From the NCBI GenBank assembly GCA_965648905.1, contig CBFGIT010000018.1, forward strand, positions 1 to 60,877: DNA of 60,877 nt, written 5' to 3'. This document shows, piece after piece, positions 18,561 through 24,086 of this stretch; position 1 is the stretch's first letter; each line of letters begins with the position of its first letter. The notes beneath the pieces were generated by a model that worked only from the letters and a program-made list of their open reading frames with translations, made no database searches and was not told the DNA's origin. Origin of the DNA: a candidate division WOR-3 bacterium (GTDB lineage Bacteria; Hydrothermota; Tepidihabitantia; Tepidihabitantales; Tepidihabitantaceae). The translations under genes and the position numbers were made by a program.

Positions 18561-18589
18561 TTGACCACCGAGGCGAGCACCGCTATCAT
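18561..18589 (+). promoter_or_regulatory. Promoter of the selenoprotein gene
   Basis: TTGACC-N17-TATCAT. Confidence 0.6.
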
Positions 18590-18639
18590 TACTGGTCGAG
18601 GCAGACAAAGAGCGTCCGAAACCAATCAGCGGAGGACAC

Positions 18640-20427
18640 ATGAAGCTGAACAGACTCCTGCTCGTGCTGATTCTAGGGCTGCCCGCGGTTCTGACCGCCA
18701 CGCAGCGCGTGATGGTGAACGAGGAGTTCACCAGGGTCCAGGGCTGACCCTATTGCCCTGGCGCAGCCCGTGGGCTGTGGGAGCTGCAGGATGCAGCTTT
18801 CGATTCGGTTGTGACAATCGGCTATCACTCTGGTGACCTGTACCAGAACGCGTCCGCAACCGCCCGGTTCTCTTTCTACGGCGTGACCGGCACGCCGACG
18901 GTGAAGCTCGATGGCGACTTCGGCGTGGTCGGAGGGTTGACCAATGGTACGATGTATCCGATCTACCGGCGCTATTTCGACCAGCACAAGAGCGTGCCGA
19001 GCCCGCTCGATATCGACCTTGAGTGTACCTACGATTCGACGACACGGCAGGGCCGGCTCGACATCAAGGTGAAGAACACAACCTCAAGCGCGGTTTCCGG
19101 GCAGTTGCAGGTAGCCCTGTGTGAAAGTCACCTGTACTATGTCTGGTACGGCCTGGACAGCGTGCACCACGTCGAGCGGGCCATGTTGCCCAGCGCATCC
19201 GGCGAGGCGATAACCGTGCCGGCGAACGACTCGATCAGCAGGACCCGCGACTACACGGTTGACCCGTCGTGGGTGGCGAGGAATTGCGAGCTTGTCGTAT
19301 TCGTGCAGAACAACGCCAGCAAAGCGATGTACCAGGGGGCGCGCATCGGCGTGTACCAGGAACCGGCGCTGGCGTACCGTGGCTACCAGGAGGCGTTTCC
19401 CCGGCCCGGAGGAAGCGCGAACCTTACCGTGGGCCTGCGCAACATCGGTTCCGGCACAGCGCAGGACGTCGCCGCGGTCCTCACCACGGCCGACCCCTAC
19501 GTGTCGGTGACGAACGGCAATGCGAACTTCGGCAGCATCAACATCGGCGCCGACGTGTATGGTCAGACGCCATTTGTCGTCAACGTCGCGAGCAACTGCC
19601 CGGACGGACACGTAGCGACCATGAATCTTGCCGTCACGGCAGCGAACGGCTACTCGGCGAGCTTGAGCTTCCCGTTGCAGGCGACCGCCAACGTTGGTTT
19701 CACGGACGACATGGAGAGCGGCGACAACGGCTGGACCCACTCGGGCACGGGCGACAACTGGCACCAGACCACACACCGCAGCCAGTCGCCTACTCACGCC
19801 TGGTACTGCGGCAACGAAGGAACGTGGCGCTACTCTGACCAGACCGACATGCGCCTTGTTTCCCCGTGGTTCACGGTTGGTGATTCGGCCACGCTGGAGT
19901 TTGACCACTGGTACGCCACCGAGGTGGACTACGACTATATGTACGTCGACGTGAACAACGGTTCGCGGTTCTGGTGGACCTTGGCCGTCTACAATGGCTC
20001 AAGCGGCTCCTGGCAACGCCAGACTTACCCGCTCGGCCAGTACGCCGGCCAGACCCTGCGCTGCCGGTGGCGCTTCGTGTCAGACTACAATACCAATGAC
20101 GAAGGCTGGTACGTGGACAACGTCTCGGTGACGCCCTATACGACCGGCGTTGAAGAACCGGGCGCCGGGCTGAGGGGCGCGAAGGTTGCAGCCCGGACTT
20201 TGGCTAAGGACAGGGTAGAACTGGCCTATTCCGTGCCCGCGGGCCGAACCGCTGACCTGACAATCTACGATGCCGATGGACGGTTGGTTGCCCGTCCCGG
20301 CAGCAGACTCGAGGGCGCAGGAACGGCGACGTGGAGCCCGGGCCGGGAAGTCGGGTCCGGCACCTACTTTGTGCGGCTGACGGGCGCGGGCGCGAACCCG
20401 GTCGTCAAGTTCGTCGTCGTCAGGTAG
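18640..20427 (+). CDS. Omp28-related thioredoxin-fold secreted selenoprotein (UPYC; Sec at codon 36) with Ig-like, jelly-roll and T9SS-type CTD; 595 aa
   Basis: SD GGAGG and ATG 18640, signal peptide, RVMVNEEFTRVQG-TGA(18745)-PYC in frame with the 18811 ORF; IGYH, FYGVTGTPTVKLDG, HHVER, VVFVQ; ends GTYFVRL..KFVVVR. Confidence 0.85.
18762..18779 (+). promoter_or_regulatory. Bacterial SECIS-like hairpin
   Basis: CGCAGCC-CGUG-GGCUGUG; loop follows the UGA after 21 nt, G at loop position 2. Confidence 0.7.
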
Positions 20428-20446: not shown

Positions 20447-20473
20447 CCAAGGGGCGCCGTAGGCGCCCCTTGG
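20447..20473 (+). terminator. Stem-loop after the selenoprotein gene
   Basis: CCAAGGGGCGCC-GTA-GGCGCCCCTTGG, no U-tract. Confidence 0.6.
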
Positions 20474-21123: not shown

Positions 21124-22038
21124 CTACCGGTCGAGCGCGTGCTCGAGAGCCCGGACGTTGTAGTCGAGCAGTTTCAGGTAGGTTCCGGCTTGAGGCAGGG
21201 AGCCGGTGGTTGACGCCAGCACCACAAGTCTCGCTCCGGTCTCACGCGCGAGAGTCGCGGGAACCTCTCGCGGCAGTTGCGGCTCGGTGCAGATTGCCCG
21301 CACCTTCTGCAACCGAATCATCTCAACCAGACCGGCCAGATACCTGGCCGACGGTTCCTGACCGGGCAGCGGCTCGATGCTTCCAGCGACCTCAAACCCG
21401 AACCGGCGGGCAAAGTAGGGCCAGGCATCATGGTGCGAGATGAGACGCCGGTCAGTCAGGGCTTGGACGAGCTTCTGCAGCGTGTCGGTCAGCCTGTCGA
21501 GCCGGCGCTGGTACTGCTCGACGCGCACCTGATAGAACCCGGCTCCGGCTGAGTCGATTCGGCCGAGCTCGCGTCCAATCGCGGAGCAGGCAACCTTCGC
21601 ATTCTCCGGGTCAAGCCAGACATGGGGATTGCCCAGCCGATGTTCATGCTCGTCGTGTGCGGCGACAAAGGACACGGACGGGAGTTCATCCGCCACGGTC
21701 AACACCGTCAGTTTTCTGTTGCCGGAGTTGACCACGAGACCATCAAGCCATTCTTCCAGGCCCAGCCCGACCCGCACAAGCAGGTCTGCTCCAGCAACCG
21801 CGCGCGCATCATCCGGCCCGGGCTCATAGGTGTGCGGGTTCTCAGCTCCGTGCAGCAGACTCTGCACTCTGACCCTGTTTCCGCCCACGTTCCTGACCCA
21901 GTCCGCCAAGTCGGGAATCGTAGTCACGACCCTGACCGGCCCGGCCGAAACCAGCCCGACCACCAGCAGCACCCCGCTGGCCCATCCTGCCCCTTGCCCC
22001 CCACCTTTCGTCCTTCGCCCTTCGTCCTTCACCCTCAT
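21124..22038 (-). CDS. znuA: Zn/Mn ABC substrate-binding protein
   Basis: NPHTYEP, HDEHEH loop, NPHVWLDP, HDAWPYF, EPS; ATGA overlap with znuB stop. Confidence 0.9.
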   Translation of the reverse strand: MRVKDEGRRTKGGGQGAGWASGVLLVVGLVSAGPVRVVTTIPDLADWVRNVGGNRVRVQSLLHGAENPHTYEPGPDDARAVAGADLLVRVGLGLEEWLDGLVVNSGNRKLTVLTVADELPSVSFVAAHDEHEHRLGNPHVWLDPENAKVACSAIGRELGRIDSAGAGFYQVRVEQYQRRLDRLTDTLQKLVQALTDRRLISHHDAWPYFARRFGFEVAGSIEPLPGQEPSARYLAGLVEMIRLQKVRAICTEPQLPREVPATLARETGARLVVLASTTGSLPQAGTYLKLLDYNVRALEHALDR

Positions 22039-22868
22039 TCCGCCTCCCTGCCGCACACCCGGCACTTCTTCCGCTTGGGCGAGAAGAGCGTCGCCGCGGC
22101 GAAGAACAAGGTTGCGACAATCACAATCGCTGCGCCGGACGGCACCTCAAGGTAGTACGAAACAACCAGCCCGACCGCGCAGGACACCACCCCGCACAGC
22201 CCGGAGAGGACGAACATCATGTTGTAGCGGTTGGTCAGTTGGTACGCGGTTGCAGCCGGAATCACCAGCAGAGCCTGAAGCAGAATGATGCCCACTGCCT
22301 TGAGCGAAAGCACGACCGTGAGTGACAGCAGGCCGAGCAGGAGCGCACTCAAGGCCTGAGTCGGCAGCCCGCTTGCCTGCGCCATCTCCTCGTCGAACGA
22401 GAGAAACTTCAGCTCTTTGTACAGCAGGCTGATTGTGCCGATAACCAGCGCCCCGAGCAGAATCATCGCCACGAGGTTGCCCTGGGTGATGCCGAGCACG
22501 TTGCCGAACAGATAACCGTAGATGCGTGCGTCGTACCGCTTCATCAGGCCGATGAACAGCACACCCAGCGCCATGGTGAAGGCGAAGAAGATGCCAATCG
22601 AAGCATCAAGCCGGATTTGCGCCCGCTTACCCGCGACCTGAATCAGCCCCGCGGTGCCGAGGCAGAAGACGACCGCGGTCAAGAGCGGGTTCAGGTTCAG
22701 GAGAAACCCGAGCGCCACCCCGCCGAACGCCGCATGGGCCAGGCCGGAGCCGGCAAACGCCATGCCGCGCAGAACCACGAAGACCCCGATGAAAGAACAC
22801 GTCAGGCCGACAACCAGCGAGCCCGCGAGTGCCCGCTGCATGAATGAGTACTGAAGGAAATCAAGCAT
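22035..22868 (-). CDS. znuB: Zn/Mn ABC permease
   Basis: FMQRAL, LAHAAFGG, YLFGN, SFDEE, IPAATA, PSGA. Confidence 0.92.
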   Translation of the reverse strand: MLDFLQYSFMQRALAGSLVVGLTCSFIGVFVVLRGMAFAGSGLAHAAFGGVALGFLLNLNPLLTAVVFCLGTAGLIQVAGKRAQIRLDASIGIFFAFTMALGVLFIGLMKRYDARIYGYLFGNVLGITQGNLVAMILLGALVIGTISLLYKELKFLSFDEEMAQASGLPTQALSALLLGLLSLTVVLSLKAVGIILLQALLVIPAATAYQLTNRYNMMFVLSGLCGVVSCAVGLVVSYYLEVPSGAAIVIVATLFFAAATLFSPKRKKCRVCGREAE

Positions 22869-23646
22869 GGCTGTCCCCGACCACGACGTACTTCCTGCCT
22901 TCCTGCTCGACCAGCACGACCCGGCCCTGGTACAAGGCCTCCAGGGTCTCTCGGTTCAGCACCTCCTCGCACCGACCGAACGCCCGCACGGTCCGGTTCA
23001 GGTACATCACCTTGTCCAGGCAGGGCAGGACTTCGTTGATGTCATGCGTGACGTACAGCGTCGTCAGCCCGCGCTCGCGGTGCAGCCGGTGCACCAGCTC
23101 GACGATTGCCTGCCGGGTCGAGACGTCAACCGCGGACGTCGGCTCGTCGAGCAGGAGTATCTCCGGTTCCTGGGCCAGAGCCCGGGCAATCAGCAGCCGC
23201 TGCTGCTGGCCGCCGGAAAGATGGCCGGCAACGTTATCAAGCATGTCACCCAGCCCGACCGCCTCGAGTGCGGCTCGTACCCGCTGCCGCTCAGTCGGGC
23301 CCGGACACCGGAACAACCCGACCGCGCCATACACACCCATCAGGGCAGCATCGAACACGCTGACCGGAAAGCGCGGGTCGATTGAGCGACGCTGGGGCAC
23401 GTAGCCGATTCTGCGCCGAACCGAAGCGAAGTCGCCGCCCCTGGTTTCGAGCACCGACACGCTTCCGGCCCCGGGTCGCTCCAGCCCGAGCACCACCCGC
23501 AGCAGGGTCGTCTTGCCGCTACCGTTCGGCCCGATGATGCCGAGAAACTCACCCTGGTGCAGCTCGAAGCTGACGTTCTCAAGCGCTACGCTCTGCGGAT
23601 AGGCGACTGTGACGCCTTCGAAGTGTATGACCGGCGCCCGACTCAT
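22861..23646 (-). CDS. znuC: Zn/Mn ABC ATPase
   Basis: [30 protein letters not shown]. Confidence 0.92.
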   Translation of the reverse strand: MSRAPVIHFEGVTVAYPQSVALENVSFELHQGEFLGIIGPNGSGKTTLLRVVLGLERPGAGSVSVLETRGGDFASVRRRIGYVPQRRSIDPRFPVSVFDAALMGVYGAVGLFRCPGPTERQRVRAALEAVGLGDMLDNVAGHLSGGQQQRLLIARALAQEPEILLLDEPTSAVDVSTRQAIVELVHRLHRERGLTTLYVTHDINEVLPCLDKVMYLNRTVRAFGRCEEVLNRETLEALYQGRVVLVEQEGRKYVVVGDSHA

Positions 23647-24086
23647 CCACGACCCCTTTCCCGACAGCCGGCGCAAAGCCCCTCGACCTGCAACCGGTGC
23701 CCGAGCACCTTGAACCCGGTGCGTGTCTCGACTCTTGACACCTGGCGCTCGAACGTGCACCCTTCAACCACGTCGACCGCACCGCAGCCGAGGCAGACCA
23801 GATGATGATGGTGCTTGCCCGGTCGGGCCCGGCAGGCAGCATAGTGCAGGGCGTTGTCGGAAAGCTCGACCCGAACCAGCACCCCGACCCGGGCCAGCTC
23901 CTCAAGGATGCGGTACACCGTCGGCAGCCCGAGCATACCGAGCTCAGGCCGCAGTTGCCTCCAGACCTGCTCCGGCGTTAGCGAGCCCTTCGCCCCGAGC
24001 AACAGCCGGGCAACGGCCAGACGGCGCGGCGTCACCTTCAGGCCCTGGCCACGCAGACTGGCACCGACACTTTCGTCGACGGTCAT
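23643..24086 (-). CDS. zur: Fur-family repressor, probably Zur
   Basis: TPRR, TVYRIL, HHHHLVCLGCG, GLCAGC; heads the znuCBA operon. Confidence 0.85.
   Translation of the reverse strand: MTVDESVGASLRGQGLKVTPRRLAVARLLLGAKGSLTPEQVWRQLRPELGMLGLPTVYRILEELARVGVLVRVELSDNALHYAACRARPGKHHHHLVCLGCGAVDVVEGCTFERQVSRVETRTGFKVLGHRLQVEGLCAGCRERGRG

Follow-up and report, generated by a model that had tools for sequence, protein, structure and literature searches.

A frame of 595 codons interrupted by a single TGA, at codon 36, occupies 18640..20427 on the forward strand of the window, i.e., the whole stretch of 60,877 nucleotides analysed here, which belongs to a candidate division WOR-3 bacterium. This locus raises two questions: is the TGA a stop codon or is it read as selenocysteine (Sec), and what would the complete product do if it leaves the cell?

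The gene and its surroundings

The Shine-Dalgarno sequence, the ATG, the basic-hydrophobic leader behind it (MKLNRLLLVLILGLPAVLTA, recognised by eye), the motif EEFTRVQG-TGA-PYC and the frame continuing to 20427, from which the original prediction had deduced a hidden secreted selenoprotein, are all present in the sequence (Table 1). Read with Sec, the motif is U-P-Y-C, and the next in-frame stop is the TAG at 20425-20427. Standard gene calling gives a 538-residue ORF starting at GTG 18811, close 5' of which no Shine-Dalgarno sequence is seen, and protein databases hold the selenoprotein only as this fragment, a truncation that had been anticipated. Two sigma-70-like sites were found in the region versus 0.5 expected, and Rfam gave no meaningful match. 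The inverted repeat that follows the stop codon is probably a terminator or a transcript-end hairpin; terminator calling on the + strand returned none at this repeat.

Genes read from their translations as a Fur/Zur-like regulator and a ZnuABC-type transporter (21124-24086, - strand) converge on the selenoprotein gene. In 14 loci carrying related Sec-form genes, examined over short flanks, none of four neighbours in the window turned up. The link to the zinc transporter was dropped because the neighbours are not conserved beside orthologues, and the gene context therefore names no substrate.

Table 1. Features of the selenoprotein locus (positions in the window)
Feature	Position	Strand	Basis or remark
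Sigma-70-like promoter TTGACC-17-TATCAT, 10/12	18561..18589	+	Consensus match only
Shine-Dalgarno GGAGG, 4 nt 5' of the ATG	18631..18635	+	
HBP35/Omp28-like selenoprotein gene, 595 codons	18640..20427	+	
Predicted Sec-pathway signal peptide, about residues 1-20	18640..18699	+	By eye; most homologues have similar leaders
Thioredoxin-fold domain, about residues 21-119	18700..18996	+	AlphaFold pLDDT 96; HBP35 and thioredoxin matches
In-frame UGA, Sec36, position 1 of U-P-Y-C	18745..18747	+	Same column in 54/54 TGA-bearing homologues
Cys39, predicted resolving cysteine	18754..18756	+	Cys in 88/88 aligned rows covering the site
SECIS hairpin, 7-bp stem, CGUG loop, 21 nt 3' of the UGA	18762..18779	+	Folding, comparison, published model constraints
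Thr85-Pro86, presumed cis-proline loop	18892..18897	+	Pro invariant; Thr in Sec forms, Tyr in Cys forms; "cis" deduced from position in the fold
Omp28-type Ig-like domain, about residues 120-240	18997..19359	+	PF11551; PDB 2r2c, Z 10.1
Second all-beta (Ig-like) domain, about residues 241-350	19360..19689	+	Secondary structure of the model
Jelly-roll domain (choice-of-anchor J/MAM-like), residues 351-497	19690..20130	+	Profile matches
T9SS type A C-terminal sorting domain behind a low-confidence linker	20182..20424	+	TIGR04183, 24.9 bits versus cut-off 23; model
G+C-rich inverted repeat of 12 bp 3' of the stop, without U-run	20447..20473	+	Fold -33.1 kcal/mol, z -4.9

Decoding of the UGA

The genome (3.0 Mb, 99.6% complete) holds the complete selA/selB/selC/selD set for which the original prediction proposed to look: selA, selB, two selD genes that themselves contain a TGA, and a tRNA-Sec that is the only UCA-anticodon tRNA among 54. 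Of 830 long ORFs, 334 end in TGA, and with TGG in normal use the genetic code is standard. A second tRNA-Cys call, unusually long with its 93 nt, was made by ARAGORN at C2:86576-86668 of this genome (G000).

The N-terminal unit of the protein matched 120 of the 132 genomes of the class, and an alignment search matched 151 of the 251 genomes of the phylum. The homologues compared here are 119 domains taken from 30 top loci, 60 hand-picked regions and two paralogue loci of the same genome; a match with extra stops (G033:C46; one TGA, two TAA) was left out, and a separate search for related loci gave three, all duplicates of genomes already in the set. The Cys/UGA pairs expected at this column were found: 54 of the 119 domains carry a TGA, every one at the first Cys column of the CxxC, and 65 carry TGC or TGT there, a ratio that is not a frequency since the picks deliberately took in both kinds. 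The motif does contain the E.FT expected of Omp28 proteins, in a protein that matches the Omp28 domain, but it is longer by one residue than the Cys pattern (EEFT-RVQG-U versus EDFT-ATW-C). Among eight orthologues, the coding sequence shows frequent synonymous changes both before and after the UGA.

The presence of TGA goes with that of the machinery. Among the 47 genomes with a listed TGA row, selA was found in 45; one other (G041) has selB without a selA match, and the G036 assembly, 96% complete in about 300 contigs, yielded neither of the two genes. In one family (f6), selA was found in none of 11 genomes and there is no TGA among its 22 rows listed.

The named relatives in protein databases belong to candidate division WOR-3, and U is present in none of the 120 listed. 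Fifty-nine of these 120 start after the Sec codon or are cut at it; Thr-Pro occurs in 54 of the 59 that start past the motif, the other five being unparsable. An intact CxxC is found in another 59 of the listed relatives, of which 58 have Tyr-Pro and none Thr-Pro, and two full-length ones fell outside the motif pattern.

The GC stem with a CGUG loop noticed behind the UGA is a hairpin of -10.2 kcal/mol (stem 18762-18768/18773-18779, loop 18769-18772). It fits the constraints published for bacterial SECIS elements, at least as given in section 5 of PMC13188914: as in SelB/SECIS recoding described there, it lies directly 3' of the UGA, at 21 nt, and has a G within the first two loop positions. 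Taken alone, it is not beyond chance (shuffle z -1.0, -1.9 and +0.8 in three folding windows, the minimum-energy fold of the two longer ones differing from the SECIS hairpin; p = 0.085 against a synonymous-codon null). The single gene being not significant, the case for a SECIS element is a comparative one. A hairpin of -5 kcal/mol or lower is found in 52/54 Sec forms, 19/63 Cys forms and 69/356 ordinary TGA stops, and at a cut-off of -7.5 kcal/mol in 36/54, 7/63 and 37/356, respectively (63 Cys forms being 65 minus one short and one duplicate row); no p-value is attached to these counts because kin are not independent. In the clade of the present gene, the loop codons GCC CGT GGG are fixed in 13/13 Sec forms versus 0/21 Cys forms. 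Two other families encode the same peptide as a different hairpin, with an AGGU loop 23 nt from the UGA (20/23). A consensus fold computed from the 36 long Sec forms together did not recover the SECIS, these two registers being mixed. Apart from this use of two registers, CGUG at 21 nt and AGGU at 23 nt, no mechanistic difference from known bacterial recoding was seen.

Selenocysteine is almost certainly what the in-frame UGA encodes, and its SelB-dependent insertion is hardly in doubt; the recoding itself is ordinary. UGA is recoded in some bacteria, but a reading as Cys, Trp or Gly through a changed code or a suppressor tRNA is scarcely credible in a genome where TGA ends so many long ORFs, TGG is normal and the sole UCA tRNA is tRNA-Sec, and for a TGA that aligns with Cys alone and tracks selA. 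Just as little credit can be given to a genuine stop codon, an error of sequencing or the lesion of a pseudogene, with a product starting at GTG 18811 without signal peptide: although databases call this 538-residue ORF and HBP35 of Porphyromonas gingivalis yields shorter cytoplasmic forms from internal starts (PMC2907840, available part), this explanation is already largely refuted by the TGA column shared across several families, the coding conserved on both sides of the UGA, the fixed SECIS codons and the lack of a Shine-Dalgarno sequence close 5' of 18811.

A long relative of HBP35

The complete frame encodes a multidomain protein. Residues 80-238 match Omp28 (Pfam PF11551; E 1e-18, 67.8 bits versus a gathering cut-off of 34.9), residues 351-497 match choice-of-anchor J (NCBIfam) just above the cut-off, and an InhA-like MAM match covers residues 411-498 (Pfam). 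The T9SS-type C-terminal domain that had been noticed is recovered by profile (TIGR04183, residues 530-593) and is barely over its cut-off, and the adhesin-like jelly-roll holds as a fold only. In the AlphaFold models (pLDDT 94 for the full length, 96 for the N-terminal unit), the thioredoxin domain is followed by an Omp28-type Ig domain, another beta domain, a jelly-roll and finally the tail.

HBP35 is at Foldseek rank 1 for both models, and the N-terminal unit superposes on its structure (PDB 5y1a) with Z 23.7 and an rmsd of 2.5 A over 214/221 residues; the next structural matches are 2axo (Z 19.3), 2r2c (Z 10.1) and then generic ones at 9 or less. Below rank 1, the full-length Foldseek matches reach TM-scores of about 0.2 at most; they are multi-beta proteins of a generic kind and were set aside. 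A profile match to HBP35 (E 2e-5) also aligns the CxxC. Both proteins have a signal peptide, a thioredoxin domain whose CxxC comes right after it, an Omp28-type Ig domain and a T9SS tail. HBP35, from another phylum, shares 15% identity with the present protein; it has 344 residues versus 595, the present protein adding two beta domains, and its first Cys stands where the present protein has Sec (W-C-G-Y-C versus U-P-Y-C). On the model, the present protein is thus structurally a long version of HBP35.

According to the available part of PMC2907840, HBP35 reduces insulin faster than E. coli thioredoxin, both cysteines being required, and binds haemin via its C-terminal part, for which the cysteines are not needed. 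Disulfide reduction and haemin binding are results on HBP35, and the common fold does not by itself establish function.

Three other groups can be compared. The best NCBIfam match is NF045500, "Omp28-related selenoprotein" (60 bits, E 2.5e-16, cut-off 200), and the best of 63 aligned family members reaches only E 1e-23 against it. NF045500 is listed as GOS_C, with UxxC, in a 2026 review (PMC13188914); the first report of GOS_C included 74 Sec sequences, taken from ocean metagenomes (PMC2398784). As far as the available parts of these two sources go, GOS_C shares with the present protein an Omp28-related thioredoxin-like fold, UxxC and Cys homologues, and neither export nor a T9SS tail is mentioned for it; it differs in coming from ocean metagenome reads, and the present branch lies far below the 200-bit cut-off. 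The Omp28 lipoprotein (NF033782, PF11551, PDB 2r2c) and AGR_C_4864 (PDB 2axo) share the thioredoxin and Ig unit, but the present protein scores 57.3 bits against NF033782, with a cut-off of 150, and has a leader without lipobox Cys and a T9SS tail instead. DsbC and DsbG resemble it by an exported thioredoxin fold, a Thr before the cis-proline and an available DsbD/CcdA-type reductant (PMC2665069, available part); the present model differs by the lack of a dimerisation domain, by another motif and by another domain set, and this likeness is a lead as to how the protein might work, nothing closer.

Selenocysteine and cysteine forms

The two forms differ around the active site. The invariant proline is preceded by Thr in 32/36 long Sec forms (with two Ser, one Val and one Tyr) and by Tyr in 33/35 long Cys forms (one read by eye), the two others having Val and being nested in a Sec clade. 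A Trp precedes the motif in 41/44 Cys forms versus 6/54 Sec forms, and His63 is kept in 106/108 rows. Since a Se-S bond resists reduction more than an S-S bond does, the Thr may offset selenium or suit isomerisation. The isomerases DsbC and DsbG typically have a Thr just ahead of the cis-proline, a residue that raises the redox potential (PMC2665069, available part).

Motif-masked trees require at least eight Sec/Cys changes on 100 rows and at least six on 66 rows. The clade of 11 Sec forms to which the present gene belongs lies inside a well-supported, mostly Cys group of 35, which includes the Cys paralogue of the same genome (63% identity across the N-terminal 220 residues); Sec forms often coexist with a Cys paralogue in one genome. 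Forcing all Sec forms into one clade is 572 log-likelihood units worse, yet p-AU is 0.214. In independent-pair tests, Sec goes with Thr-Pro in 3/4 pairs (p 0.25) and with loss of the Trp in 2/4, four pairs being too few to reach significance. The switches may be due to gain, loss or gene conversion, all of which fit the trees.

Two Cys forms inside a Sec clade, L074 (G048) and L073 (G044), have lost the hairpin and carry Val before the proline; judging from these sequences, they are probable Sec-to-Cys reversions. No selA or selB was found in G048, and selA is kept in G044. The Cys paralogue of the present genome (G000 C4:83438-88671; L131, L008) has the motif W-C-T-Y-C and the same domain set. 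The genes that follow it encode a Cys Omp28 lipoprotein, an exported protein of unknown kind and a TusA/YedF-like product, and then comes a selD that contains a TGA; the pair formed by the Cys paralogue and the lipoprotein recurs in many relatives.

Export and envelope redox context

A signal-peptide-like leader, recognised by eye, together with a type A C-terminal domain is the layout of T9SS cargo. Several components of this system are found in the genome: SprA, above the cut-off, 14 PorV genes above the cut-off, and two full-length PorU-like genes (357 and 354.5 bits, under the cut-off of 420), one of which sits directly 5' of a porV. T9SS sorting-domain matches number 148. GldL/PorL was found in 0/44 genomes and GldM/PorM was not found in the present genome, in searches that had no responding positive control; this combination of SprA, PorV and PorU-like genes without GldL/GldM match refers to C10:6295-11712, on the contig of sprA, and to the genome (G000) as a whole. 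The T9SS of this bacterium possibly has a different motor. HBP35 itself arrives at the surface via the T9SS and loses its tail there (PMC3120885, available part). Surface export of the present protein via a type IX-type system is likely. Concerning the surface-exported Sec protein of the original prediction, Sec decoding is supported and export likely, while motor genes were not found.

The envelope seems to have a reducing input and to lack a standard oxidant, since a CcdA/DsbD-type protein is present and neither DsbB nor VKOR was found in the genome, in searches whose controls responded. This would favour a role as reductase or isomerase.

The protein could also stay in the periplasm as a Sec-containing redox protein, the export system being without motor or the tail serving another purpose. 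The motor results (GldL/PorL in 0/44 genomes, GldM/PorM in 0/1) and CcdA, a ready electron source in the periplasm, would agree with such a location, as would the complementation of an E. coli dsbA mutant by an hbp35 plasmid, which indicates that this fold can work there (PMC2907840, available part). However, SprA, 14 PorV, the PorU-like genes and the 148 tail matches are hard to explain otherwise than by export and the motor searches had no positive control, which makes a periplasmic location improbable, and surface export is retained below.

Other candidate exported selenoproteins

The genome was scanned for other genes of this kind, using 210 tail-ending segments away from contig ends and a crude hydrophobicity rule for leaders. 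Leaderless tail segments with an in-frame upstream leader are bounded by TGA in 15 cases, by TAG in two and by TAA in one. Removing one TGA case (C34), read as a pair of adjacent genes, leaves 14: two Omp28-like (including the present gene), two ResA/TlpA-like, seven G-U-G/PWAKV-like and three Vps10/BNR propellers. Four candidates added from the long-ORF analysis bring the number of candidate exported selenoproteins to about 18, in 17/18 of which a hairpin fitting the model reaches -6 kcal/mol or lower; another, at C3:57788, was dropped as not credible.

Two Omp28-like Sec candidates accompany the present gene in G000: a 344-residue T9SS form with G-U-A-Q-C (C17:41249, - strand; L118), from a short subfamily in which every one of the 16 rows of the clade has Sec, and a lipoprotein with T-U-G-Y-C (C1:118060, + strand; L130). 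Seven paralogues (C1:71467, C14:53495, C23:28099, C3:118095, C30:23990, C31:24859, C52:9825) have the TGA at the same place, GGUC- or AGUU-loop hairpins and T9SS tails; their G-U-G precedes PWAKV-like strands, and their N-terminal domain gave no Pfam or NCBIfam match. In the Vps10/BNR propellers (C1:78387, C10:62914, C9:69997), the G-U-G lies about 20 residues past a CxxxC; the nearest hairpin lacks the loop G, and the hairpin that fits the model is 33 nt away and weak in one of the three. The ResA/TlpA-like UxxC proteins (C21:22924, C3:95969), with signal peptide and tail, are possible electron donors or partners. Single-TGA exported candidates with good hairpins are found at C16:1978 (C-U), C8:33864 (CGG-U) and C11:21813 (U-C in an FG-GAP protein).

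Proposed function

Taken as a whole, it is probable that the UGA is read as Sec and that the product is exported by the type IX system to the surface, where it would act as a selenium thiol-disulfide reductase or isomerase on envelope proteins. Considered separately, thiol-disulfide exchange through Sec36 and Cys39 is very likely, whereas it is a tentative proposal, which we regard as somewhat doubtful, that the protein isomerises or repairs exported proteins instead of simply reducing them.

In the proposed mechanism, SelB bound to the CGUG hairpin would deliver Sec-tRNA and the signal peptide would bring the chain into the periplasm; SprA/PorV would recognise the tail and a PorU-like sortase remove it, as for HBP35. 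The Sec36 selenolate would attack a substrate disulfide or an oxidised cysteine, and Cys39 would resolve the mixed Se-S bond. Re-reduction could depend on periplasmic CcdA and ResA/TlpA-like proteins or, outside, on small thiols or sulfide. The extra beta domains may keep the enzyme at the surface or close to its substrates, which are likely to be the many exported cysteine proteins of this bacterium, e.g., C25 peptidases (23 matches in the genome) or other selenoproteins. Without selenium, the cell would be left with a mere stub of 35 residues and with the Cys paralogue.

The Sec/Cys pair might instead mainly bind a metal, haem or a metalloid, or the protein be mainly an adhesin, catalysis being secondary. 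The haemin binding of HBP35, which involves its C-terminal part, the jelly-roll domain, the nearly constant His63 and the zinc-type ABC transporter and Fur-like gene read downstream from translations would all suit such a function; but the protein retains its UxxC, the invariant proline and an intact thioredoxin fold, haemin binding by HBP35 is independent of its cysteines (PMC2907840, available part) and the neighbours are not conserved. A mainly binding or adhesive role is accordingly even a little less probable than a periplasmic location, and thiol-disulfide exchange at the surface remains the preferred function.

A broader proposal is that WOR-3 bacteria run a selenium redox system at their outer surface. 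The Sec form would be an isomerase retuned by loss of the Trp and change of Tyr to Thr, gained repeatedly beside the Cys paralogue; it would form, mend or recycle Se-S bonds both in the roughly 18 exported selenoproteins and in surface cysteine proteases, which would leave the cell by a T9SS without known motor. As a whole, this proposal is unlikely, although less so than the alternatives weighed above.

Relation to known selenoproteins and significance

Selenoproteins of a related family were already known in 2008; this type, GOS_C, is known only from predictions. The original prediction held exported bacterial selenoproteins to be little characterised; this must be tempered, since the Omp28-like UxxC type was already catalogued (GOS_C/NF045500) and the review also lists SaoB, SaoX, ExtKL and DsbA/DsbG-like proteins (PMC13188914, available part). 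The literature search returned no report of a WOR-3 or T9SS selenoprotein; the wording "T9SS" or "secret" does not occur in the available part of this review, nor do "Omp28" and "T9SS" in that of the Haft preprint. The type of selenoprotein is therefore known, while the present branch is uncatalogued in the literature examined, although the deep-Sep and groundwater surveys and a second Haft work may list it. T9SS export of a selenoprotein, the link with HBP35 and the paired active-site changes are not in that literature.

These results extend the GOS_C type to a phylum-wide, mis-annotated branch, for which the tie with HBP35 offers a concrete assay. The pairs of Sec and Cys paralogues, with their matched change of a redox-tuning residue, make the adaptation of a protein scaffold to selenium testable. 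It should also be emphasized that type IX cargo is a place where selenoproteins get missed.
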